The notes under the pieces are model-generated. The model was not told the DNA's origin. It searched no databases and saw nothing but the letters and a program-made list of their open reading frames with translations. 64,000 nt of DNA from Vulcanimicrobiota bacterium (lineage in GTDB: Bacteria; Vulcanimicrobiota; Xenobia; Xenobiales; JADMJV01), in NCBI GenBank assembly GCA_050250895.1, contig JBFWNU010000007.1, positions 369,030-433,029 on the forward strand, given 5' to 3'. Below, one piece after another: positions 4,431 to 61,573 of this stretch (the first letter of the stretch is position 1; each line of letters opens with the position of its first letter). Made by a program: the position numbers and the translations under genes.

Positions 4431-4477
4431 AGGTTTAGGCGCCTGGCTGGTCAAAGTAGGCGGCCAGGGGAGGCTGC

Positions 4478-5188
4478 ATGCTAAGTCAGTTGATCGATGG
4501 GCTCAAGGCTATCGTGGTGGGCCACAATGTTGACGAGCGACGGACCACGGCTCGCGCTCGCTGCGAATTGGCTGTTTCGTGTCGCAGTCAAAAAGGGGGG
4601 TTTCCGGCCAACCTGCGCGATCTGAGCATCAGCGGCGTGGGGCTGGGCGCCGATGCATTCATCAGCCGCGGTACCAAGCTCAAGATTGCCTGTCCTCGAG
4701 CCTTTGGCAGTGGGACCGACGCGATGGGCGTGGTACGGTGGTGCCGCCGGGTCGAGGACGCCTGGTATCACCTGGGGGTCGATCTGCAGGGAATGAGTCC
4801 GAAGTGTTGGGTGCCGGCGGCTCTGCGTGAGTTGGGTCTTGACCCTGATGCCCCGCGGCAGCGGCGCAAGTTGATGCGGGTCCCGGCTGCGCTTGGGGTG
4901 GAACTCAAGCTGGCCGACAGTCAGGCGGCCGAGGGGAAGCTGCTCAATCTCAGCGTGGGTGGGGCTTTTATCGAGACGCGCGCCCGATTATCGCGCCATG
5001 CTCAGGTGGTGATGTTGATGGGCCCCTGGGACGGAATTCCCGCGATCACCCTCACCTCCAGTGTGGTTTCGGTAAAGAACGAACAGGGGCTTTGGAGAGC
5101 CAGCCTGCGTTTCACTCATATCGGTTCAGATCAGCGCAAACTGCTCGGGCGCTATCTCACCGGCTTGGTGAAGGCCGCCAAAGCTTGA
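4478..5188 (+). CDS. Tandem PilZ-domain protein
   Basis: Two RxxxR plus D/NxSxxG pairs: RRTTAR/DLSISG and RRKLMR/NLSVGG; GGAGG RBS. Confidence 0.85.
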   Translation: MLSQLIDGLKAIVVGHNVDERRTTARARCELAVSCRSQKGGFPANLRDLSISGVGLGADAFISRGTKLKIACPRAFGSGTDAMGVVRWCRRVEDAWYHLGVDLQGMSPKCWVPAALRELGLDPDAPRQRRKLMRVPAALGVELKLADSQAAEGKLLNLSVGGAFIETRARLSRHAQVVMLMGPWDGIPAITLTSSVVSVKNEQGLWRASLRFTHIGSDQRKLLGRYLTGLVKAAKA

Positions 5189-32896: not shown

Positions 32897-32940
32897 TCAA
32901 CCCTTAGCAGGCTCAATGGTCATCTGACCAAGCCTACCCG

Positions 32941-32967
32941 AGAAGGCCACGCCAGTGGCCTTCTTTC
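32941..32967 (+). terminator. Hairpin between precursor and DUF692 (leaky terminator or mRNA stabiliser)
   Basis: Perfect 10-bp stem AGAAGGCCAC/GTGGCCTTCT with GCCA loop and a short T tail. Confidence 0.6.
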
Positions 32968-33023
32968 ACGAGCGGCCGGGTTTATGCGGGCCGCGAAACG
33001 TGCATGAGAGCAAAGGAGGCAAG

Positions 33024-33893
33024 ATGGTAGCCAACCGCTGGAATATCCCCGACTATGGGCTCGGCATGGGACTGCGCACGGTGCATTACGAGCATATCTT
33101 GACCCACAAGCCCCAGGTCGATTTCTTCGAGATTATCTCGGAGAACTTTCTCTCGACCCAGGGCCGGCCCTTGCACCTGCTCGATGAAATCGCATCGAAG
33201 TATCGCATTTTGATGCACGGTGTCTCGATGTCGGTGGGCAGCACCGACCCTCTCGACTTCGATTATCTAGGCAAGCTGAAAGCTCTGGCCAACCGCCTGA
33301 AGGTCCCGTTCGTGTCCGACCACCTTTGCTGGACAGGAGTATTGGGGCGTAACACCCACGACCTGTTGCCTGTTCCCCTGACCGAGGATTCGCTCCGCCA
33401 TGTCGCCGGCCGAGTGCGGGTGATCCAGGACTTTCTCGAGCTGCCGGTGGCCCTCGAAAACCCCTCCAACTATCTTGAGTTCAGCGTGTCTCAGATGGGT
33501 GAGGCCGAGTACATGGCCCGCCTGACCGAAGAGGCCGACTGCGGCTTGCTCCTCGATGTCAACAATGTCTACGTCAGCGCCTTCAATCATGGCTTTGATC
33601 CCGACGAGTATATTCAGGCCGTGCCGGTCGAGCGCATCCTCTATCACCACGTTGCCGGTCACACCCACAAGGGGACGCACATCGTCGATACCCACTCCGA
33701 CCATGTAGTCGAGAAAGTGTGGGAGATGTACGAGGCGATGCACATGCGCACGGGTGGACGCAGCACGATGGTCGAGTGGGATGATGACATTCCGGCCTTC
33801 GAGATCGTCCATCAAGAGGTTCTCAAAGCTCAGGTGTACCGCGACCGGGCCGAGGCACGACTGACCGAGAAAGAGGCTGTCGGTGGCCACTGA
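33024..33893 (+). CDS. DUF692 multinuclear non-heme iron oxidase (MNIO; BufB/HvfB-like)
   Basis: GLGMGLR, FFEIISENF, HGVSMSVG, VSDHLCW, HDLLPVP, ALENPS, LLLDVNNVYV, HVAGH, VDTH, VEWD; AAGGAGG RBS. Confidence 0.95.
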   Translation: MVANRWNIPDYGLGMGLRTVHYEHILTHKPQVDFFEIISENFLSTQGRPLHLLDEIASKYRILMHGVSMSVGSTDPLDFDYLGKLKALANRLKVPFVSDHLCWTGVLGRNTHDLLPVPLTEDSLRHVAGRVRVIQDFLELPVALENPSNYLEFSVSQMGEAEYMARLTEEADCGLLLDVNNVYVSAFNHGFDPDEYIQAVPVERILYHHVAGHTHKGTHIVDTHSDHVVEKVWEMYEAMHMRTGGRSTMVEWDDDIPAFEIVHQEVLKAQVYRDRAEARLTEKEAVGGH

Positions 33894-34722
33894 TCAAATC
33901 GATCTACGCGAACTTCAGACCTGGCTGCAGACTTTCATCGTCACCCCTGGCGGCAGCCGCGACGCTATCGAGGCCGCCGAACGGGCCGCCGGCCTCGAGC
34001 AGGGCTCGGTCGAGAGAATGGTTCTGCCCTCGAAAACCCTCTCCCCGCTGCAACGCCTCGAGATCTATCGCGGGATGTATCTGCTGCGGATGGAAGAGGC
34101 GCTCGGCATCGACTACCCGGCCGTGCGTCATCTGGTAGGGGCCAAGGCCTTCTTTTCTATGGTGGCTGAGTACGTAGAGGTCCACCCCTCGAGGTCTTAC
34201 ACTCTGGACCACGTAGGGCGCCATTTCGCCGAGTTTCTGGCTCGGAGCGGCCATCCGCAGGCCGGTTTGCTGGGAGATCTGGCCCGACTGGAGTTCGCCA
34301 TGAATGAGGTCTTCCACGAGCCCGAGACATCGGTGTTGAGCCCTCTCGACCTGGCCGCCATCCCCCCCGATGACTGGGAGTGGGCCCGGCTTGAACCCAT
34401 CGCCGCTCTGCGTTTGCTAGAAACCGATTATCCGGCCAACGAGTATTTCACCGCTTACAACAACGACCGCCGGCCGCCCGCGGATCTTGGTCCCCGGGCC
34501 AACCGGGTGGTGGTGTGGCGTCAGCAGTTCAAAGTCTGGCGCATGCCTCTCGAACCGGCCGCTTTGCAATTGTTGCAGTTGTTGACCTCGGGATTGCCGT
34601 TGGGGCAGGCGCTCGCCGCCACGGCGGCCGAGAGTCCCCTGGTCGAAGACCAGCTCTTTGATTGGTTTAGCTCATGGGTGGGTGAAGGCATGTTCAGCCG
34701 CATCACCACCATCAGGCAGTGA
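33883..34722 (+). CDS. DUF2063 MNIO partner protein (BufC/HvfC-like)
   Basis: RLEIYRGMY..R..EAL..DYPAV..LVG..F, HPSRSYTL, DLARLE, VVWR; overlaps the DUF692 stop. Confidence 0.9.
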   Translation: MATDQIDLRELQTWLQTFIVTPGGSRDAIEAAERAAGLEQGSVERMVLPSKTLSPLQRLEIYRGMYLLRMEEALGIDYPAVRHLVGAKAFFSMVAEYVEVHPSRSYTLDHVGRHFAEFLARSGHPQAGLLGDLARLEFAMNEVFHEPETSVLSPLDLAAIPPDDWEWARLEPIAALRLLETDYPANEYFTAYNNDRRPPADLGPRANRVVVWRQQFKVWRMPLEPAALQLLQLLTSGLPLGQALAATAAESPLVEDQLFDWFSSWVGEGMFSRITTIRQ

Positions 34723-42843: not shown

Positions 42844-43650
42844 ATGTTTGGTTGGTTCAGGAAGTCCGAGGTTGTCCAATTCGTGAAAATCGAAGGACGA
42901 GCTCTCACCTTCAAGTCCGAACGCGGTTATAAACTCAAGGCGCAGCCCACGATTCAAATCGACATCCCCATCGCCAGCGGGGGCTCGCAGCGCTTCAAGT
43001 TACCGGTCACCATACGGCAGGTTCGCGAGGTCGCCAAGAAGCAGTACATTTGCACGGGCGAAGTCCCGGGTGCGGCCCAGTCGGTCGAGCAGTTGCGTCA
43101 ACTTCTCATCGGGCTCGATCCGATGGCGGCCGGCGCCAGCGGCGACGATGAAGACGACTTCGCCAACATGCGGCGCAGCCCCCGCTACCCCTGGAGCCTG
43201 CGCGTGCTCTCCAAGGATCTGGTCGGTTTTCAGGGCGTCTCCATCGACTTCAACAAGCTGGGCGTGAAGATCGCCACCGAGGGGCCGGCTGAATTGGGCA
43301 GTATCATCACCATGATGCTCGAGATCGAAACGGCCAAGACCAGAGAATTGCTCTGTCAGGGCGAAGTTCGCTGGTCCAACGAGATCGCTCGCCGACGGTG
43401 GGAGGTCGGCATCGAGTTTCGCGACCTCGAGCCCGAGGTGGCTAAAGAACTCGAACAGTTCGAGAAGTTCCTTGAATCCCGTCAGACCGACAACATCTCC
43501 AAGCGGACCATCATCGACTCTACCCTGTATGTCGACGACGCTTTCGGCCCCGGGGTGGACGGTCTTGAAGAAGAGCCGAGCGAGTCAAACGACGACGCCG
43601 AGCAAGAAACTGTCGAAGCTCCCGAAGAAGAAACCTCAACCTCAAGCTGA
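42844..43650 (+). CDS. PilZ-domain protein with acidic tail
   Basis: RRSPR...DFNKLG, GEVRW, GIEF. Confidence 0.75.
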   Translation: MFGWFRKSEVVQFVKIEGRALTFKSERGYKLKAQPTIQIDIPIASGGSQRFKLPVTIRQVREVAKKQYICTGEVPGAAQSVEQLRQLLIGLDPMAAGASGDDEDDFANMRRSPRYPWSLRVLSKDLVGFQGVSIDFNKLGVKIATEGPAELGSIITMMLEIETAKTRELLCQGEVRWSNEIARRRWEVGIEFRDLEPEVAKELEQFEKFLESRQTDNISKRTIIDSTLYVDDAFGPGVDGLEEEPSESNDDAEQETVEAPEEETSTSS

Positions 43651-49619: not shown

Positions 49620-51284
49620 ATGTCGGCCGGTTCTGAATCAGCCATACCAGAATCACCGTTTCCAACCTGGGGACCCAACGGGATCGCCGCCAGCGATCAC
49701 CGGCTGGCTTCTCAGGCCGCTTGCGAGGTGATGTCTGAGGGGGGGAACGCGGTAGACGCCGCCATCACGCTGTCGCTTACGCTGGGAGTGCTTTGCCCTC
49801 ACTACACCGGCGTCGGCGGGGGTGGCTTCTGTCTCTTTTGGCTGCCGGGTTTTGAACGACCCAGGGTGCTCGACTATCGCGAGACGGCCCCGGCCGCCTC
49901 CAAGCCCGGGATGTTCAGCGACACCCGCCGGGCCAGTACCCGAGGGGCCCTGGCCCCGGGCACCCCGGGCACGGTAGCCGGGTTGGCCGAACTGCTCGAG
50001 CAACACGGCACCATCTCCTGGGAGCGAGCCCTGGCTCCGGGCCTGGAGCTGGCCGAGAAGGGTTTTCCGACTTATCCCAATCTGCGCCGGGTCATTCTGG
50101 GACGGCTCAAAATGCTGTCGGAGTATAGCGAGACGGCCCGAATCTTCGTCACCGAGACGGGCCAGGGGCCCCTGCCCGGTCAACTGCTGCGCCAGCCCGA
50201 CCTGGCTGCCACCTATCGGCGGTTGGCCGAACACGGGCCGCGTGAGTTCTATGAAGGCGAGACGGCCGAACGGATCATCGCGGAACTCGACCGCGGCGGG
50301 GGAGTCATGACCCGCCAGGATCTGGTGGACTATAAGCCTGTCTGGCGCGAGCCGATTTCGGCCCTTTATCGGGGTCGCGAGGTCTTCACCATCGGACCTC
50401 CCTCGGGAGGTGGGATCCAGCTGCTCCAGATGCTGCAGATGCTCGAACCGTTCGATTTTCCACCGGCCAAGCTGGGTTCGGCAAGAACCTATCACCTTCA
50501 GTGCGAGGCGATGAGGATCTCCTTTGCCGACCGCTCTTCCTGGATCGCCGATCCGGCCTTTTTCGAAGTGCCCGTCGAGGCCATGCTCGACCCGGGCCGG
50601 ATCGCCGATCTGCACTTGCTCATCGACCCGCGACGGGCCAACGAGCTCGTCGAGATGCCTCCCCTGGAGGGTTATCTAGCGGCCGGTCAGAGCCTGCCTG
50701 GTCAGGGGGGGACGGCTTCGTTTTGCACGGCCGACAGTCAGGGCGGCTTCGTGGTGGCCACCGAGTCGGTCAATCTCTGGTTTGGCTCGATGGTCATCGC
50801 CCCGGGCACCGGGGTCGTGCTCAACGACATCATGGACGACTTCAGCCAGCGCCCTGGCACACCCGACGCCTTCGGCCTGGTGTCTTCGCGTATCAACCAG
50901 GTCGAGGCCAACAAGCGACCGGCTTCGAGCAGCACACCGGCGCTGGTTTTCGAGGACGGCAGGCCGATCATCGGCTCCGGCTCGGCCGGTGGCCCACGCA
51001 TTGCCACCTCGGTCTTCCAGATTCTGACCCACTTGCTGGACCATCGTCTCAACGTGCGCCAGGCCATGGACGCGCCCAGGATACACCATCAGTGGCTACC
51101 CAACGAACTGGTGGTGGAGCGTTTCGTGCCTGAGGACGTGCGCAAAGGACTGCGAGCTCTTGGGCATCGAGTCGCCGAAGGTCCGGCCCGCAGCCACGGC
51201 TGCGCCATCGCCTGGCACGAGGAAGACGGCCTCTACTACGGAGCCGGCGACTTCAGGTCCGGCGGAGCCGCGGCCGGCTGCTGA
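49620..51284 (+). CDS. ggt: Gamma-glutamyltransferase
   Basis: GGNAVDAA, GVGGGGF, LDYRETAP, GTASF (Thr nucleophile), LNDIMDDFS, PRIHHQWLP. Confidence 0.95.
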   Translation: MSAGSESAIPESPFPTWGPNGIAASDHRLASQAACEVMSEGGNAVDAAITLSLTLGVLCPHYTGVGGGGFCLFWLPGFERPRVLDYRETAPAASKPGMFSDTRRASTRGALAPGTPGTVAGLAELLEQHGTISWERALAPGLELAEKGFPTYPNLRRVILGRLKMLSEYSETARIFVTETGQGPLPGQLLRQPDLAATYRRLAEHGPREFYEGETAERIIAELDRGGGVMTRQDLVDYKPVWREPISALYRGREVFTIGPPSGGGIQLLQMLQMLEPFDFPPAKLGSARTYHLQCEAMRISFADRSSWIADPAFFEVPVEAMLDPGRIADLHLLIDPRRANELVEMPPLEGYLAAGQSLPGQGGTASFCTADSQGGFVVATESVNLWFGSMVIAPGTGVVLNDIMDDFSQRPGTPDAFGLVSSRINQVEANKRPASSSTPALVFEDGRPIIGSGSAGGPRIATSVFQILTHLLDHRLNVRQAMDAPRIHHQWLPNELVVERFVPEDVRKGLRALGHRVAEGPARSHGCAIAWHEEDGLYYGAGDFRSGGAAAGC

Positions 51285-51778
51285 GCGAGCACCAGCGTCA
51301 AAGCCGGCAACAGACCCTCGAGAGGAACGCTCTGGCCACTGCCGGCCAGATGAAGCTCGTAGCAGCCGTAGCCGGGCACAGTGACGGTACCGTTTAGCTC
51401 CTGACCTTGCTCCCCGGCCGTAATATCGGCGCTCAGCGACGCCATCCCAATGGTGCCCTCGAAGTGATCGTCAGAATGGATCACGTTTACGGGTTGGCCA
51501 GCGACCTCGCCGGTGAGTTGGCGAGTGTTGGGGTCGCAGGGCGAACCGGGCACCGAATAGAGCGCGACCGGCCAGTTGCAACCAGCCGACTCGAGATAAC
51601 CCAGAGTAGAGTCGTAGCCTGGACCGGGACGTTGTTGGAGGTCGAGATGGACGATGCCGACGTCTCCCCTGATGGTGACGCGGTCTTCGTTTTCTCGCAC
51701 GGTGAGAGAAGCATTGTTTCGTCCGATTTCGCCCTCAAAGCGAGCGCGCGAACGAGGCGTGGAGGATGTGATGACCAT
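51236..51778 (-). CDS. Hypothetical beta-rich protein
   Basis: Repeated GEIG/GDVG/GEVAG/GTIG strands; no family recognised. Confidence 0.55.
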   Translation of the reverse strand: MVITSSTPRSRARFEGEIGRNNASLTVRENEDRVTIRGDVGIVHLDLQQRPGPGYDSTLGYLESAGCNWPVALYSVPGSPCDPNTRQLTGEVAGQPVNVIHSDDHFEGTIGMASLSADITAGEQGQELNGTVTVPGYGCYELHLAGSGQSVPLEGLLPALTLVLAQQPAAAPPDLKSPAP

Positions 51779-51965
51779 GTGTTCGTTCTAGAACAACGAC
51801 CTTGCCCTGGTCTTTCCGGGTTGTTGCACTTCTGTCAAAGCTGTAATTTTCGAACCAGTCTAGCAACATTGTGGAAACGATGTTAACTCCTGGTAAACTA
51901 ATGGACTTTTTAACATGTGACCTATATAATTCAAAGAAATCCCATCCCCCACCGGAGGTCAACTC

Positions 51966-54950
51966 ATGAGCGGAACCGTCAGCGGATACGGCCAGAACAC
52001 CCATCTCAACGCCCACGTGAACTTTGTTTCTCCGAACGAGCACGGCGAAGTCACCGCTTACGCAGAGGCGGGCGAAGGGCAATCGAACCTGGTGGTCAAC
52101 ATCGCTGGCGAAGCCGAAAGCCTCGAGGGCTTCAACTTCTCTGAAGACCTCGGCTCGTGGCTCGACAATATCCTCAACAGCTCCGACTTCACCGTGGCCG
52201 TCGCCTATGCCGCCAACGGCTCGTCGAGCAGCGCCAAAGCCAGCAACGGCTCGCACGCCACCGCTTCGGCCACCGACGGCTCCAAGGCCCACGCTCACGC
52301 CCAGGATCAGTCCAACGCCACCGCCACCGCCGATGACGGCTCCAAAGCTAACGCCCACGCCGACGACGGTTCCACCGCCAACGCCAGCGCCGACGACTAC
52401 TCGTCGGCCTCGGCCGATGCCGACGACGCGGCCACGGCCACTGCCAAAGCAGACTTCTTCTCGGATTCGACCTCGGTAGCCAACGCCCAGTCTCAGGCCA
52501 AGTCCGAAGCCAAGGGCGTCTCGGACGCCACCGCCGCCGCCAGCGACGGCTCGTCGGCCGACGCTTTCGCCAAAGACTGGTCGACCTCGGTCGCCAGCGC
52601 CGCCACCGGCTCGGCCGCCACCGCTTCCTCGGCTGACGGTTCGGTAGCCGGCTCTACTGCCAGTGATGGCTCCTCGGCCCAATCCGCGGCCGCCAAACAC
52701 TCGGCCGCTCAGGCCGACGCCAGCGACCTTTCCAGCGCCACTTCGACGGCCGCCAACCATTCCGCCGCCAGCTCCGAAGCCGCCAACAGTTCCGATGCGG
52801 CCTCCACCGCCCGGGGTGGCTCGGTGGCCGATTCCTTCGCCCAAGACGGCTCGGCCGCCACGGCCGACGCCAGCAAGTTCGGCTCGGCTACCGCCAGCGC
52901 CGGCGGCTCGTCGGCTGCCGACGCTACCGCTCACAGCGACTCGGTCGCCCAGGCTGCGGCCGCTCACGGCTCGGCCGCCCAGGCCGACGCCAGCAATGTT
53001 TCTAACGCCACCGCCACGGCGGCCCACGGTTCGGCCTCTGCAGCCACCGCCAGCGACTACTCTGACGCGGCCGGCACGGCCGTCGGTCACTCCAACTCTG
53101 ACGCTTTTGCCACCGACCACTCCAACGCCGTCGCCGACGCCAGCAAGTTCGGCTCGGCTACGGCCACGGCCGGTGACGACTCGGCCGCCAGCGCCACCGC
53201 TCGCGGCGACTCGACCGCCCAGGCCGCGGCCGTCCACAGTTCGGCTGCCGAGGCCGACGCCAGCCGCGTTTCTAACGCTACCTCGACGGCCGCCAACGAC
53301 TCGGCCGCCTCCTCGACCGCGAAAGGCTTCTCCGACGCCTCGGCCACGGCTTTCGACAGCTCGGTAGCCGACGCTTTCGGCAAGAACCACTCCCAGGCAA
53401 CCGCCGATGCCAGCAACCAGGCTTCCTCCACGGCCACGGCCGGTGGCCACTCGGCTGCCACTTCCAGCGCCAGCGACCTGTCCACGGCTCAGTCGGCCGC
53501 TCTTCACGGCTCGGCTGCTGAAGCCGACGCCAGCAACGTTTCCAACGCCACCTCGACGGCTGCCAACCACTCGGCCTCGACGTCGCAAGCCAGCGACTAC
53601 TCCGACGCTTCGGCTACGGCCACCGGCCGCTCGGTCTCGGACGCTTTCGCCGCCGATCACTCCGACGCCGTCGCCGACGCCAGTCACCTGTCCTCGTCGC
53701 GAGCCTCGGCCGGTGGCGACTCGACCGCTGCCTCGACCGCCAGCGACCTGTCGACGGCCCGCTCGGCCGCCGCTCACGGCTCGGCCGCCGAAGCTGACGC
53801 CAGCAACGTTTCCAACGCCACCTCGACGGCTGCCAATCACTCGGCCTCGACGTCGCAAGCCAGTGACTACTCTGACGCTTCGGCCACGGCTCGCGGCCGC
53901 TCGGTCTCGGACGCTTTCGCCGCCGATCACTCCGACGCCGTCGCCGACGCCAGTCACCTGTCCTCGTCGCGGGCCTCGGCCGGTGGCGACTCCACCGCTG
54001 CCTCGACCGCCAGCGACCTGTCGACGGCCCGTTCGGCCGCCGCCCACGGCTCGGCCGCCGAAGCCGACGCCAGCAACGTTTCGAACGCCACCTCGACGGC
54101 CGCCCACGCTTCGGCCTCGTCGTCTGAGGCAACCAACTACTCCGACGCTTCGGCCACGGCCGTGGGGCACTCCAACTCTGACGCTTTCGCCGCCGACCAC
54201 TCCGACGCCGTAGCCGACGCCAGCCACCTGGCCTCGTCGCGAGCCTCGGCTGGTGACAACTCGGCCGCTTCGGCGACCGCCAGCGATGCTTCCACCTCGC
54301 GGGCCGCGGCCGCTCACGACTCGGCTGCCGAAGCCGACGCGACCCTGGGCAGCAACGCAACCTCGACGGCCAACGTCGGTTCGGCCGCCAGTTCTCGCGC
54401 TCGCCTGGGTTCGGACGCCTTCGCCACGGCTGCCTATCAGTCGGTGGCCGATTCGGTGGCCGCCCGCCATTCGACCGCCAGCGCCGACGCTTCGTTCACC
54501 TCGGCTGCCGACGCGGTCGCTCGCAACCGCTCGACCGCTTCGGCCGACGCTGACCACCTGTCCACGGCCAACGCCCGGGCGCGCTTTGGCGCGGCCGCGT
54601 CGGCCGACGCGAGCTTCGTCTCTGACGCCCGCTCGAACGCCTTCAACCACTCGGCTTCGCAGTCGCGCTCGAGCTGGTATTCGCTGGCCCAGTCGTGGTC
54701 GGCCAACCTCTCCAACGCCCAGAGCGAAGCCCGCAACCACTCCCAGGCTCAGGCCGGCGCCGACGACATCTCCGAGGCCGCCAGCCAGGCCGTTGACCAC
54801 TCGCGCGCCAACGCCCGCGCCCTCAACGACTCGATCGCTCTGGCCCAGGCCCTGCGCGGATCGGGCGCCTACGCCCTGTCGACCCACGGCGGAGCCGGTG
54901 CGGCCGTAGCAGCCGACCACAGCCACGCCCAGAGCCGTTCCAACGGCTAG
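51966..54950 (+). CDS. Ala/Ser/Asp-rich decapeptide-repeat protein (predicted beta-solenoid)
   Basis: GGAGG RBS; residues 86-994 parse into 91 consecutive S-x-A-x-[AS]-x-A-x-x-x units; GC-biased codon usage in this frame. Confidence 0.85.
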   Translation: MSGTVSGYGQNTHLNAHVNFVSPNEHGEVTAYAEAGEGQSNLVVNIAGEAESLEGFNFSEDLGSWLDNILNSSDFTVAVAYAANGSSSSAKASNGSHATASATDGSKAHAHAQDQSNATATADDGSKANAHADDGSTANASADDYSSASADADDAATATAKADFFSDSTSVANAQSQAKSEAKGVSDATAAASDGSSADAFAKDWSTSVASAATGSAATASSADGSVAGSTASDGSSAQSAAAKHSAAQADASDLSSATSTAANHSAASSEAANSSDAASTARGGSVADSFAQDGSAATADASKFGSATASAGGSSAADATAHSDSVAQAAAAHGSAAQADASNVSNATATAAHGSASAATASDYSDAAGTAVGHSNSDAFATDHSNAVADASKFGSATATAGDDSAASATARGDSTAQAAAVHSSAAEADASRVSNATSTAANDSAASSTAKGFSDASATAFDSSVADAFGKNHSQATADASNQASSTATAGGHSAATSSASDLSTAQSAALHGSAAEADASNVSNATSTAANHSASTSQASDYSDASATATGRSVSDAFAADHSDAVADASHLSSSRASAGGDSTAASTASDLSTARSAAAHGSAAEADASNVSNATSTAANHSASTSQASDYSDASATARGRSVSDAFAADHSDAVADASHLSSSRASAGGDSTAASTASDLSTARSAAAHGSAAEADASNVSNATSTAAHASASSSEATNYSDASATAVGHSNSDAFAADHSDAVADASHLASSRASAGDNSAASATASDASTSRAAAAHDSAAEADATLGSNATSTANVGSAASSRARLGSDAFATAAYQSVADSVAARHSTASADASFTSAADAVARNRSTASADADHLSTANARARFGAAASADASFVSDARSNAFNHSASQSRSSWYSLAQSWSANLSNAQSEARNHSQAQAGADDISEAASQAVDHSRANARALNDSIALAQALRGSGAYALSTHGGAGAAVAADHSHAQSRSNG
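53511..54050 (+). repeat. Two near-identical 270-bp tandem units within the solenoid gene
   Basis: 53511-53780 and 53781-54050 encode 90-aa blocks differing at one residue (ATATGR vs ATARGR); more diverged copies flank them. Confidence 0.9.
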
Positions 54951-54975
54951 TTTCCACCCTCTAAGAATCGACCGA

Positions 54976-54999
54976 CTTGAGACGCCGCGGCGTCTCAAG
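54976..54999. terminator. Perfect 24-bp palindrome after the solenoid gene
   Basis: CTTGAGACGCCGCGGCGTCTCAAG followed by a weak T tract. Confidence 0.55.
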
Positions 55000-55037
55000 C
55001 TATTTCTGGCAGGTTCCACCCACGAAAGGCCAAATAC

Positions 55038-55436
55038 ATGACCATGGAAGTTTCCAACAGCCCTTATTTCGCTCTGGCCGAACTGGTTCATCAGTTTCAA
55101 CAGGGGCATGTCCAGGTCGAGCACTACCATAACGCGCTCGACACGGCTACCCAGTTTCTCGATCGCTGGGCCCAGGCTTTGTCACAGATGAAGGTTCCAG
55201 CCTCGTACCCCGACGGTGAAGTGTTAGTCGAGGCCGGTAGGACAGGTCTCGAGCACCTCTACGCCGCCGTCGAGATGCTGCGCCGGTTGCCCGACGAACC
55301 TCAGGTGGCCGAAGAAGCACTAGTCGAGGCCGAGGCCGGCCACGACTTGCTGGTCAAGCTCATGGAAGTCAATCAAGAGAAACGCGAAGAGTTCGCCGAG
55401 GCCGTCCAAGAGGCTCGCTACTACGGCGACGAATAG
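55038..55436 (+). CDS. Small acidic helical hypothetical protein
   Basis: GAAAGG RBS; amphipathic helices; no motif recognised. Confidence 0.7.
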   Translation: MTMEVSNSPYFALAELVHQFQQGHVQVEHYHNALDTATQFLDRWAQALSQMKVPASYPDGEVLVEAGRTGLEHLYAAVEMLRRLPDEPQVAEEALVEAEAGHDLLVKLMEVNQEKREEFAEAVQEARYYGDE

Positions 55437-58810: not shown

Positions 58811-59698
58811 TCAATTGAGGTCTCCTTCGTTGGTTACCAGGTAGGCCACCCCCTCGCCCGCTTGCATCCGGGCAAACAGTTCCGGCAAACGCTGCAGCGG
58901 ATGTTTGCCCGAAAGCATGCGATCGGGAAGCTCGCCTAATCGCTGTTCGGCCAGGGTCAGATCGGCGGCCGCCAACGGCCCCGTCCCGCGCAGCGTCAGC
59001 TGGTCGTAGTGCAGCCGAGTGCAATCGAAACGGGTCAGGCCGGCCCCGGGACCCGCAAACAGAACCGTCCCGCCACGGGCCACCAGCCGGGTGGACAGTT
59101 GTCGGATGGTGTCGTTGCCACTGGCCTCTAAGAGCAGTTCGATGGGATGGCTGCGAAAGTTTTCGGCCGTCATCGGTCCGTCGAGTTCCATGGATTGGCT
59201 GGCCCCGAGCTCGACCGAGAGTTCGAGCGCGGTCGGCAAGCTGCCCACCACCCAGGGAGTGGTATCTTCCATCAAGGCCACCAGGCAAAGCCCCATAAAG
59301 CCCGCTCCCATCACCGCCGTCGCATCGGGAAGCTCGCCCACTTCGCGCAACACCCGCAGGGCCAGGGCGATGGGGCAGAGCATGGCATCGGGCCCGAACA
59401 GTTGCGCCCGCGGGATCAAACGCTCGGCCGGCAAGATGAGATATTCGGCCAGGGGGCCGCTGTAGTAAGCCACCACCGGCTGGCCTCGACGCCAGCCGAT
59501 CACGTTGGCCCCGATCTGCAGCACCTCTCCGGCGATGGGAACCGCGGCCCGAAAGGTGCCAGATTGAAAGTCGCGCAGGTGGTTCTCGTCGACCACCGCC
59601 GAGGTGAAGCGAACGGCCATCTGCCCCGGCTCGGGGGCGGGAGCGTCAGACTCGACCATGGTGGCCTGACCCGGTCCATCTGCTCGGCAGAACAGCAT
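58811..59698 (-). CDS. Degenerate MDR-superfamily protein lacking zinc ligands
   Basis: GroES-like start (PEPGQMAVR, GEVLQIG), GAGFMG, LEASG, RLHYDQLTLRG; catalytic Cys/GHE and Zn lobe absent. Confidence 0.7.
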   Translation of the reverse strand: MLFCRADGPGQATMVESDAPAPEPGQMAVRFTSAVVDENHLRDFQSGTFRAAVPIAGEVLQIGANVIGWRRGQPVVAYYSGPLAEYLILPAERLIPRAQLFGPDAMLCPIALALRVLREVGELPDATAVMGAGFMGLCLVALMEDTTPWVVGSLPTALELSVELGASQSMELDGPMTAENFRSHPIELLLEASGNDTIRQLSTRLVARGGTVLFAGPGAGLTRFDCTRLHYDQLTLRGTGPLAAADLTLAEQRLGELPDRMLSGKHPLQRLPELFARMQAGEGVAYLVTNEGDLN

Positions 59699-59817
59699 TG
59701 GCGCTACTTTCGCGGAGGCTGGCGGTGTCCTGCCGAGAAATCATGAACTTGGCTGTAACACTCGCCAGGGTCGGCGGTCTAAGCCCATGTCAGACACGAG
59801 AGCGGAGGAGTTCGAAG

Positions 59818-60543
59818 ATGCTACGCAACATGATGATCGGATTGGGCCTGGCGGCCCTGCTCGTCACCACTACGCCGGTTACCGCCCAGGAAGGCGGCAG
59901 TCCCCAGCGACCCGAGTGGTTTCAGGGCCAGGGTAACGGACCGCGCGAGGGCCGTGGTCGCGGGCAAGGCGCTCACCGCGGCGAGCGCCGCCAGAAGATG
60001 ATGCAGCGTTTTGACGCTGATGGCGACGGAAAGCTGTCTGACAGCGAGCGCCAGGCCGCTCGCGAAGCCTGGAAAGAACACGGCGGCGGCAAGCGCGCCG
60101 AGATGATGAAGCGCTTTGATACCGACGGCGACGGACAGCTGTCGGACAGCGAGCGCCAGGCCGCTCGCGAAGCCTGGAAAGAACATGGCGGCGGCAAGCG
60201 CGCCGAGATGATGAAGCGCTTTGATACCGACGGCGACGGAGAGCTGTCGGACAGCGAACGACAGGCCGCTCGCGAGGCCTGGAAAGAGCATGGCGGCGAC
60301 AAGCGCGCCGAGATGATGAAGCGCTTTGACACCGACGGCGATGGACAGCTGTCGGACGGCGAGCGCCAGGCCGCTCGCCAAGCTTGGAAGCAGGAGCACC
60401 CGGAGCAGGCCCGCAAGATGATGGAGCGCTTCGATACCGATGGCGACGGACAGCTCTCTGACGGTGAACGCAAAGCAGCCCGCGAGGCTCGGCGCCAACG
60501 CGGCGGCAAAGGTCCTCGGGGCCAGCGGGGCGGCCAGAACTAA
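59818..60543 (+). CDS. Secreted EF-hand repeat protein
   Basis: GGAGG RBS; signal peptide; five D[AT]DGDG[KQE]LSD[SG]E loops in about 35-aa (105-bp) repeats. Confidence 0.9.
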   Translation: MLRNMMIGLGLAALLVTTTPVTAQEGGSPQRPEWFQGQGNGPREGRGRGQGAHRGERRQKMMQRFDADGDGKLSDSERQAAREAWKEHGGGKRAEMMKRFDTDGDGQLSDSERQAAREAWKEHGGGKRAEMMKRFDTDGDGELSDSERQAAREAWKEHGGDKRAEMMKRFDTDGDGQLSDGERQAARQAWKQEHPEQARKMMERFDTDGDGQLSDGERKAAREARRQRGGKGPRGQRGGQN

Positions 60544-60883: not shown

Positions 60884-61573
60884 TCAGTCAAGTTGTTCGG
60901 ACCTGGCTCGCTCCAGCAGACCCCTTATTCTTGGATTGTCTTTGGCCATCTCGAGGGGGGGGCGGTTCAACCCACAAGTCAAATCGACGCTGGCCCCAGC
61001 ATTGAGCAACTCTCGAACCATGAGTTCGTCGTCCTCTTCGATGGCAAACTGCAGAGGAGTTGGTGAACCGGTCACATTGTCGTAGCCGTCGACGCATGCT
61101 CCGTGACGAAGTAATAGTCGGACCACTTCGATGGACCCGTTCGCTGTGGCGTGAGCGAGTGGAGTCATCCCTCGATCATCAACTTGCTCAAGAACGGCCT
61201 GGCCGTTCGCCATTTCTAGGATGGCCTTCACTCGATCTGTTGCGCCTACCATGCACGCGATGCTAAGGGAAGTCCATCCGTCTACTGGAAGTTCGAACTC
61301 AGCAGAAGCTCCATGTTTAGCCAGTAGCTTCACTAGATGAATCTCGGTGGCCCACGTCAACGCCGTCGAGCCATTCAGATTGCACCCATTCGGATCTGCC
61401 CCTGCTCGTAGAAGTTTGTCGATGCTGATCTCGTCTCCGAGAAGAACAGCCAACGTTAACGGTGTGTTTTCCCCGATTAGCTGATTTGGTGTTTCAAGTT
61501 CTTCCAAAACCAGACGAAGCAACACCGGATCATTTTTCCAGAGCGCTTCGTTGGCTATTTTGACCTTGTTCAT
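60884..61573 (-). CDS. Ankyrin repeat protein (putative immunity protein)
   Basis: TPLTLAV, GSTALTWA, GMTPLAHA, TPLQFA, GADPN; visibly lower GC; starts immediately after the Rhs-CT stop. Confidence 0.9.
   Translation of the reverse strand: MNKVKIANEALWKNDPVLLRLVLEELETPNQLIGENTPLTLAVLLGDEISIDKLLRAGADPNGCNLNGSTALTWATEIHLVKLLAKHGASAEFELPVDGWTSLSIACMVGATDRVKAILEMANGQAVLEQVDDRGMTPLAHATANGSIEVVRLLLRHGACVDGYDNVTGSPTPLQFAIEEDDELMVRELLNAGASVDLTCGLNRPPLEMAKDNPRIRGLLERARSEQLD

Follow-up and report, generated by a model that had tools for sequence, protein, structure and literature searches.

A giant decapeptide-repeat protein of a Vulcanimicrobiota bacterium: a predicted curli-like beta-solenoid with a conserved cap and a small partner protein

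The locus

A bacterium of the phylum Vulcanimicrobiota (Xenobia; Xenobiales) encodes a 994-amino-acid (aa) protein that consists of decapeptide repeats from residue 86 to its end. We analyzed its gene within a stretch of 64,000 nucleotides (nt), positions 369,030 to 433,029 of the forward strand of contig JBFWNU010000007.1 (assembly GCA_050250895.1). This whole stretch is called the window, and all coordinates refer to it unless a contig or locus is named. We use the terms “giant gene” and “giant protein” for the repeat gene and its product, and “partner” for the small gene that follows it and for the protein it encodes. A preliminary description had noticed the repeat array; the present analysis adds a conserved partner gene, a conserved N-terminal cap, the occurrence of the same module in large surface proteins and a 90-aa super-repeat. 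The features of the locus are listed below.

51902..51930 (+): promoter-like site TGGACT-17-TATAAT in the AT-rich intergenic stretch 5' of the giant gene; 10/12 matches, a consensus match only
51954..51958 (+): Shine-Dalgarno sequence GGAGG, 7 nt 5' of the ATG, read from the sequence
51966..54950 (+): giant decapeptide gene, an open reading frame (ORF) of 994 aa, by translation
51966..52091 (+): residues 1-42, polar N-terminal stretch with no Sec-type signal and low model confidence
52092..52220 (+): residues 43-85, conserved N-terminal cap with the motif LGSWLDNILNSSDFTVAVAYAANG, from alignments A1 and A2
52221..54947 (+): array of 91 decapeptides, S-x-A-x-A/S-x-A-x-[DNGH]-[GHLDVY], predicted to form 45.5 coils of 20 residues
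52959..54340 (+): best-conserved 270-nt super-repeats (90 aa, nine decapeptides), 5.1 copies, 79% matches and 1% indels according to Tandem Repeats Finder
54381..54947 (+): repeats 73-91, C-terminal section, near-neutral and rich in Arg, aromatic residues and Leu/Ile
54976..54999 (+): GC-rich 10-bp hairpin between the giant and partner genes, terminator- or attenuator-like, with a weak T tract
55038..55436 (+): partner gene, encoding a 132-aa acidic protein of no known family, a candidate partner or chaperone of the giant protein

The giant ORF is a real gene in its coding frame. Its GC content at third codon positions (GC3) is 0.83, compared with 0.60 for a 1131-aa ORF that overlaps it on the minus strand. 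The codon log-likelihood of the giant frame is the highest of the six (0.317 versus at most 0.153 for the others), the reference being seven genes, one of which was taken out of frame. Codons that differ by a single change between the 270-nt units are synonymous in 423 cases and non-synonymous in 178, and this synonymous excess points to purifying selection on the repeats; between units 6 and 7, identity is 93% at the DNA level and 97% at the protein level. In orthologues from lower-GC genomes the same frame is open for 1311-1328 codons, while all opposite-strand ORFs there are shorter than 300 aa. Two promoter-like sites were found in the upstream region against 0.2 expected from shuffled sequences. 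Among the sequencing runs listed for the giant gene there was no RNA run, and six DNA runs had small shares.

Two other ORFs were considered and rejected. The 1131-aa minus-strand ORF (51735-55130) is regarded as a GC-rich shadow frame because of its GC3 and because its frame is not kept in the orthologues; it is Gly/Arg/Val-rich, and gene callers could choose it wrongly. A 180-aa ORF at 51236-51778 (-) has no family and is not considered a part of the system, since the orthologous locus of genome G013 leaves only 115 nt between the gamma-glutamyltranspeptidase gene and the repeat gene and thus has no room for it.

Anatomy of the array

From residue 86 (nt 52221) to the stop codon, 90 full decapeptides and a final 9-mer follow each other in a single register, so the insertion-free register given in the preliminary description holds for all 91 repeats. 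The array contains neither Pro nor Cys, as that description also stated; outside it there is a single Pro, located in the N-terminal cap, and Cys is absent throughout the protein. Position 1 of the 91 repeats is S in 84, A in 4 and G in 3; position 3 is A in 73, S in 17 and G in 1; position 5 is A in 59, S in 31 and G in 1; position 7 is A in 85, S in 5 and G in 1. In the 90 full repeats all four of these positions, called inward cells below, are occupied by S, A or G without exception (360/360), as the claim of small residues there requires. Positions 2, 4, 6 and 8 are mainly T, S, A, D, Q, R and N, and 24% of the outward positions are charged. Positions 9 and 10 are turn-like: the leading pairs are those named in the preliminary description (DG 7, NH 6, HG 6, DH 6), followed by DY, DL, NV and HL with 4 each. 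These arc positions are rich in Asp and His (67/180), and the first repeats have conserved DDG/DDY arcs.

The giant protein has a net charge of about -67 and an isoelectric point of 4.5. Charge is distributed unevenly, with block values of 0, -2 and +1 in the C-terminal section versus -5 to -9 elsewhere. This section also carries the motifs SW.S.A.SWS and ARALN[DN].IAL.QALRGS, which are conserved in the four-orthologue alignment A5.

Tandem Repeats Finder reports periods of 30, 60 and 270 nt, and the whole array can be divided into ten nine-decapeptide units plus one decapeptide. At the six variable positions (2, 4, 6, 8, 9 and 10) identity is 0.458 at a lag of 90 aa, compared with 0.09-0.17 at most lags. 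The orthologue in G013 has lags of 90 and 180 aa (18 repeats), and those in G009 and G018 have neither. Being so patchy among the orthologues, the super-repeat is interpreted as a unit of duplication, and its candidacy as a structural unit was rejected. Additionally, alternate repeats are more alike than neighbours (0.24 versus 0.04 at position 2; 0.26 versus 0.09 at position 8), which fits a structural unit of two decapeptides per coil. Between repeats two apart, the identity of outward residues that would stack is 0.12-0.26; no more than 2 Thr are stacked in a row, and 10 of 90 repeats have TxT at positions 4 and 6.

N-terminus, cap and relatives

The first 42 residues have low confidence in the AlphaFold2 model, with a predicted local distance difference test (pLDDT) below 50 at residues 1-31 and 34-42. 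The N-termini of the family are polar, uncharged and rich in Ser, Asn, Thr and Gln. A hydropathy scan (not SignalP) found neither a hydrophobic core nor a basic n-region in any of 11 family N-termini (11/11), in agreement with the earlier statement that the giant protein has no signal peptide. Upstream of the ATG the frame is open for 12 codons only. In the cap that follows, a strand (residues 43-47), two helices (50-53 and 58-70) and a second strand (77-82) are predicted.

No family of Pfam (E <= 1) or NCBIfam matches the giant protein, and a profile search of PDB sequences gave low-complexity matches only (QA repeats, eL29, circumsporozoite protein). A search of a collection of 5.8 billion proteins yielded 11 weak hits among 7,995 scored candidates, and a cap profile found just 4 hits in the same collection; among 1.84 billion representatives there were 16 relatives. 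Whole-genome searches matched the giant protein in 9 of 41 relatives, the own genome counted. With a cap-plus-repeat profile, 16 of the 301 genomes of the phylum were positive, concentrated in two large-genome families, f1 and f2. By bacterial family, the decapeptide gene is present in 7/15 genomes of f1 (16 genomes if the own genome is included), 5/5 of f2, 1/1 of f8, 2/207 of f15 and 0/19 of f3. A search for related loci found nothing with the giant protein alone; a three-orthologue alignment recovered two genome and three metagenome loci, of which only L021 and L022 were new.

The true orthologues in G013 and G009 are 47-57% identical to the giant protein across the first 200 residues. The gene order common to the orthologues is T2SSF, M16 peptidase, gamma-glutamyltranspeptidase, giant gene, small gene. 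The register is single over 91 repeats here, about 123 in G013, about 121 in G009 and about 44 in a third orthologue. Inward cells are S, A or G in 486/492, 480/484 and 168/176 cases in the three orthologues, whose arrays also lack Pro and Cys.

Shorter paralogues of 336-590 aa have the same cap, and their arrays are split into blocks by short Pro-containing inserts. The own genome encodes one such short form (about 330 aa, same cap) at G000:C4:592029-593300 (-), or L018:6294-7301. The insert DDR..LP.IDS, the only Pro-containing element, recurs in the short paralogues L009, L010, L012, L017 and L030 (genomes G001, G004, G006, G014 and G009, respectively) and divides their arrays into blocks of about 4 to about 19 repeats. 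This insert may mark places where solenoid segments kink or join.

The proteins behind the weak database hits are large and carry RTX, bacterial immunoglobulin-like, cadherin-like, Calx-beta or dockerin domains; one of them is named Planctomycetaceae. In these Planctomycete-type proteins, arrays of about 5-25 decapeptides lie between globular parts. In a profile-profile comparison (hhalign) of alignment A1 with protein P0011 the probability is 96.4% and E is 1.4e-9, with the cap inside the aligned region. P0002 and P0009 combine the decapeptide module with RTX repeats (PF00353), and the host proteins have a weak, sub-threshold match to the Planctomycete extracellular motif. Because the homology reaches the cap and the host domains are of extracellular type, cap plus array is, judging by sequence, a shared mobile domain that is extracellular in other proteins. 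The literature searched, with most subscription journals outside its reach, contained no description of the decapeptide repeat and nothing on Eremiobacterota together with amyloid.

The partner protein

The partner gene starts 88 nt 3' of the giant gene, beyond the 10-bp hairpin; in G013 the partner ATG directly follows the stop codon of the giant gene. Against Pfam the partner, a small helical protein, had no hit with E <0.02, and all scores were under the cut-offs. Its homologues form 31 clusters, most of them unnamed and none named beyond “hypothetical protein”, and the single organism label among them is Eremiobacteraeota.

A hidden Markov model of the partner family finds a member within about 0.4 kb of a decapeptide gene at 10 of 13 assessable loci, paralogous short forms included. 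One of the remaining loci has a partner member 7 kb away, and the two loci of G018 have none. In the own genome, a partner paralogue at G000:C4:600087-600437 (-) lies 7 kb from the short decapeptide paralogue mentioned above. In the phylum, the partner is present in 8 of 301 genomes. Within f1 (16 genomes, the own one counted), the 8 genomes that have the decapeptide gene are also the 8 that have the partner, and in the remaining 8 neither gene was detected; these genomes are related, and the co-occurrence should not be read as a statistical test. Since the partner is not repetitive, assembly failure is an unlikely cause of the shared absence.

A complex of three chains (giant residues 1-185, giant residues 816-994 and the partner) was predicted with an ipSAE interface score of 0.64, the best control reaching 0.00. 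This mark is reached by 116 of 157 solved complexes and by 2 of 215 mismatched pairs, a calibration that is only rough for custom alignments and for a three-chain job. At least 78% of contacts are common to the runs, and the partner was modelled with a pLDDT of at least 79. All confident predicted contacts on the giant protein fall within residues 48-79, the conserved cap helix. On the partner, the predicted contact residues cluster in three segments, and many of them are invariant or near-invariant columns of the family, e.g., L48, P54, G60, L105 and F119.

Predicted fold

For structure prediction we used alignment A3 with 42 rows in register; among them are 11 N-terminal rows of relatives that include the cap, and 30 windows of repeats taken from four genes. 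With A3, AlphaFold2 modelled residues 1-355 with a mean pLDDT of 87.7 (98-99 in the repeats) and a predicted template modelling score of 0.80; the five models scored 87.7, 86.4, 74.9, 72.6 and 72.4. The predicted secondary structure is regular, with 7-residue strands (positions 2-8) and 3-residue arcs (positions 9, 10 and 1). The ESM Atlas model of the giant protein has a pLDDT of 0.67, its nearest folds being solenoids, leucine-rich repeats and SufD, and ESMFold2 gave the terminal fragments of the complex job a pLDDT of 73-75; thus both other predictors were moderately confident and did not call disorder. The structure matches of the AlphaFold2 model are as follows.

8c50_A, curli CsgA of Pontibacter korlensis: 28.1; 2.3 A / 284 (best match)
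7o23_A, head domain of a trimeric autotransporter (BpaC): 16.8; 4.1 A / 207
6xnr, Rhagium mordax antifreeze protein: 9.4; 2.9 A / 110

On these models, a solenoid fold of the giant protein is quite probable. The preliminary description had proposed a thin two-sided Ala/Ser beta-solenoid of about 45 coils resembling the Rhagium antifreeze protein. The model of residues 1-355 reproduces the two-sided solenoid, and 45.5 coils are predicted for the whole array; the Rhagium analogue gives way to curli. The alternating inward cells of the proposed strand also stand, except that Ser at position 1 lies in the arc of the model, so the strand comprises positions 2-8. A triangular coil of 30 residues, conceivable because 90 = 3 x 30, was rejected: similarity at lag 2 exceeds that at lags 1 and 3, the model is two-sided, and Ala would not be able to fill such a core.

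According to PMC10192328, curli subunits have 23 +/- 5 residues per repeat, 4-62 repeats and a rise of 4.8 A; in the centrosymmetric CsgA class the half-repeats are equivalent, and in the AlphaFold model of that paper CsgA of this class is stacked head to tail, turned by 180 degrees. In the model, one 20-residue coil of the giant protein corresponds to one curlin repeat, and 45.5 coils at a curli-like 4.8 A each would make a rod of about 22 nm.

Comparison with known systems

The giant protein (as predicted) shares with curli CsgA of the centrosymmetric class (8c50, Pontibacter korlensis R15.5) a two-sheet beta-solenoid of strand-arc-strand type, at 12% identity in the structural alignment. 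The core of curli follows N-x-psi-x-psi-x-Q with Asn/Gln ladders, as given in PMC10192328, whereas that of the giant protein is Ser, Ala and Gly only. Its arcs have 3 residues and those of curli typically 4. Curli subunits carry a Sec signal and an N22 segment, both absent from the giant protein, which instead has conserved terminal caps and a different partner protein. A search of the genome (99.64% complete) for CsgG (PF03783), but not for CsgE or CsgF, gave no match. Judged by its sequence, the giant protein is not a member of the curli family, and it is in the modelled structure that curli is the better analogue than the Rhagium protein.

Rhagium antifreeze proteins have about 140 residues and a flat TxTxTxT ice-binding face. 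Compared with them (R. mordax 6xnr, R. inquisitor 4dt5), the giant protein has no regular Thr face, has a charged surface and is seven times longer. Bacterial ice-nucleation proteins lack a classical signal peptide, as does the giant protein. They are described, in PMC9418140 and PMC10418271, as big in-register arrays of short repeats with a predicted beta-solenoid fold and basic C-terminal coils. InaZ and PbINP thus resemble the giant protein in their short in-register repeats, higher-order repeat, predicted beta-solenoid and distinct, more basic C-terminal coils. They differ in having 16-residue coils with water-organising TxT and SxL ladders; the giant protein has a period of 10, nothing comparable to these ladders and no Pfam hit.

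RTX beta-rolls and type I secreted adhesins share with the giant protein two half-repeats per coil, Asp-rich turns, acidity, the lack of Cys and the lack of an N-terminal signal. The giant protein differs from them in having no GGxGxD nonapeptide and no HemolysinCabind hit, although the same library detected PF00353 in P0002 and P0009.

Proposed role

The interpretation that we favour on balance is that the giant protein is a stand-alone, capped, curli-like beta-solenoid rod with a cap-binding small protein, exported without Sec and having a structural role. Two decapeptides would form one 20-residue coil, in which two 7-residue strands are joined by 3-residue arcs. Ala and Ser at positions 3, 5 and 7 would face the interior, where those of the two strands would interlock in a minimal alanine steric zipper; Ser would occupy the arc corners. 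With its 45.5 coils the array would form a very thin and strongly acidic rod, started by the N-terminal helix-strand cap and ended by the Arg- and aromatic-rich section. The protein would be made in the cytoplasm, where the partner, in this view a dedicated chaperone or adaptor, would bind the cap helix (residues about 48-79) and occupy the nucleating end until the rod arrives at its destination. The rod may serve as a rigid extracellular spacer, fibre or matrix element that leaves the cell by a non-classical, Sec-independent route; it is the module in large Planctomycete-type surface proteins that suggests an extracellular structural role.

A broader proposal, which we put forward as doubtful, is that the two genes represent an undescribed Csg-independent biogenesis system, in which the partner would clamp the cap helix of a curli-convergent alanine-zipper rod or fibre until its Sec-independent export. 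Its bolder version, export via a flagellar-type secretion gate, is speculative. Polar, uncharged N-termini rich in Ser, Asn, Thr and Gln recall flagellar axial proteins, and the predicted partner site lies directly behind the polar N-terminal stretch. The own genome has a flagellar system with flagellin, FliS, two full-length FlhA (FHIPEP) and eight paralogues that consist of the FlhA C-domain only. The partner was considered as a flagellar export chaperone FliS and rejected: hhalign of alignment A6 with the FliS of the own genome gave a probability of 0.2%. FlgN was not found in the genome. The partner being unlike FliS, flagellar-type export stays at the level of speculation.

As for the FlhA genes themselves (contigs C1, C6, C7 and C8; L032-L039), the eight partial matches lie within open frames 379-1024 aa long and correspond for the most part to the C-terminal cytoplasmic domain of the profile: in seven of them the match begins at profile positions 322-457, and one spans 259-587. 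Such a multiplication of the docking domain of the flagellar export gate is unusual.

Alternative explanations

Several observations speak against the capped, exported rod. No export machinery linked to the gene was found, and the extracellular location is deduced solely from the homologous module. In f2 the decapeptide gene is present in all five genomes and the partner was found in none of them (0/5); partner paralogues that do not adjoin decapeptide genes occur elsewhere in the own genome. Curlin_rpt (PF07012) matches neither the giant protein nor anything in the whole genome, with a positive E. coli control, and the profile search of PDB sequences did not retrieve 8c50, so there is no sequence similarity to curli. 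Regarding the fold, AlphaFold2 without an alignment produced none for the whole protein (pLDDT 30.4). Of the 42 rows of A3, 30 are repeat-shifted windows of the same few genes, so the profile is idealised. While AlphaFold2 with A3 gave the solenoid, the Foldseek search that the preliminary description had proposed beside it returned nothing from PDB at E <= 0.001, only weak left-handed beta-helix hits with a template modelling score of at most 0.28. AlphaFold2 is moreover known to build false confident beta-solenoids, for 32 of 78 random perfect repeats according to PMC11795689. The failed single-sequence model, this documented bias and the Foldseek result would suit a low-complexity, largely disordered Ala/Ser-rich protein, its solenoid being an artefact of the repeats and of the shifted alignment. 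We consider that quite unlikely. Disorder fails to explain a 10-residue register kept over 91 to about 123 repeats, orthologues included, an array free of Pro with small residues in every inward cell, and purifying selection. An artefact is also less likely because the repeats are diverged rather than perfect (identity of 0.09-0.17 at variable positions at most lags), while the register and the small-residue rule are conserved. Since all inward cells are S, A or G, buried charges are impossible in the model, which has none of the implausible features listed in the abstract of PMC11795689, and the moderate confidence of ESM Atlas and ESMFold2 also argues against disorder.

If the solenoid is accepted, the protein could still be a true functional amyloid, with subunits that stack or template like CsgA into extracellular fibres and the partner as a cytoplasmic anti-aggregation chaperone. 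The best structural match is to CsgA, and the two half-repeats are equivalent as in the centrosymmetric class (PMC10192328). The 90-aa duplication unit, being 4.5 coils, needs the same half-repeat symmetry, and a partner placed by prediction on the nucleating end would suit the control of polymerisation. Beta-solenoid caps usually block end-to-end growth, and the conserved, distinct N- and C-terminal sections resemble caps; the conserved N-terminal cap in particular argues for a capped monomeric rod. One subunit already has 45.5 coils, its charge of about -67 disfavours self-association without counter-ions, and neither CsgG nor a CsgB-like nucleator nor a Sec signal was found, which makes an amyloid unlikely. 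A very unlikely variant is a rod that stays inside the cell as a scaffold or cytoskeleton-like element, for which the partner would be a docking adaptor. It agrees with the lack of a signal peptide in both proteins and of secretion genes beside the gene pair; in particular, no ABC, HlyD or TolC family turned up in the Pfam scans of the larger ORFs of the window. It disagrees with the homologous cap-plus-array module in proteins with RTX, cadherin-like and dockerin domains. Many exported repeat proteins are acidic and Cys-free, as is the giant protein. Finally, the preliminary description had suggested a ribbon that templates ice or mineral, or binds metals via Asp/His ladders. The outward residues are irregular, 24% of them being charged, which stands against ice templating; there is no regular outward ladder (lag-2 identity of 0.12-0.26, Thr runs of at most 2, TxT in 10/90 repeats), and with no Pfam hit there is none to ice-nucleation or RTX repeat families. 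An ice-binding, ice-nucleating, mineral-templating or metal-ladder protein is therefore highly improbable. What is left of the metal proposal is the abundance of Asp and His in the arcs, by which cation binding is possible, without a regular pattern.

Other features of the window

At 32928-34719 (+) lies a gene for a ribosomally synthesized and post-translationally modified peptide (RiPP)-modifying enzyme of the MbnB/TglH/ChrH type (E 2.9e-101), followed by a DUF2063 gene. Such a pair is usual in methanobactin-like or TglHI-like peptide-modification systems. Several EF-hand calcium-binding motifs are present in a 281-aa protein (59698-60543 (+)) that adjoins an ankyrin-repeat protein (60884-61573 (-)); both are uncommon in bacteria. 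The window also encodes two PilZ-domain proteins (4460-5185 (+) and 42844-43650 (+)), a GAF-histidine kinase hybrid and a CHASE2-cyclase, which suggests dense cyclic-nucleotide signalling around the giant-gene locus.

Significance

If the model is right, the giant protein has the thinnest kind of beta-solenoid core, made of alanine only, without Gln/Asn ladders or bulky hydrophobic residues, and it occurs in nature, exact over 45 coils. A 22-nm rod with freely variable outward residues would also be an attractive design scaffold. Three testable questions arise: what minimum of side-chain keeps a steric zipper intact, how half-coil-compatible units are added when repeat arrays grow, and how cells avert misassembly before export. 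For the last of them, the partner with its predicted clamp on the cap helix offers a concrete candidate. The module additionally annotates a previously family-less stretch of large Planctomycete-type surface proteins. As modelled, the locus represents a curli-type solenoid from a new sequence family in a new two-gene arrangement. If this is true, a phylum of which very few members are in culture would have evolved a curli-like architecture that uses neither the sequence motif nor the secretion system of curli.

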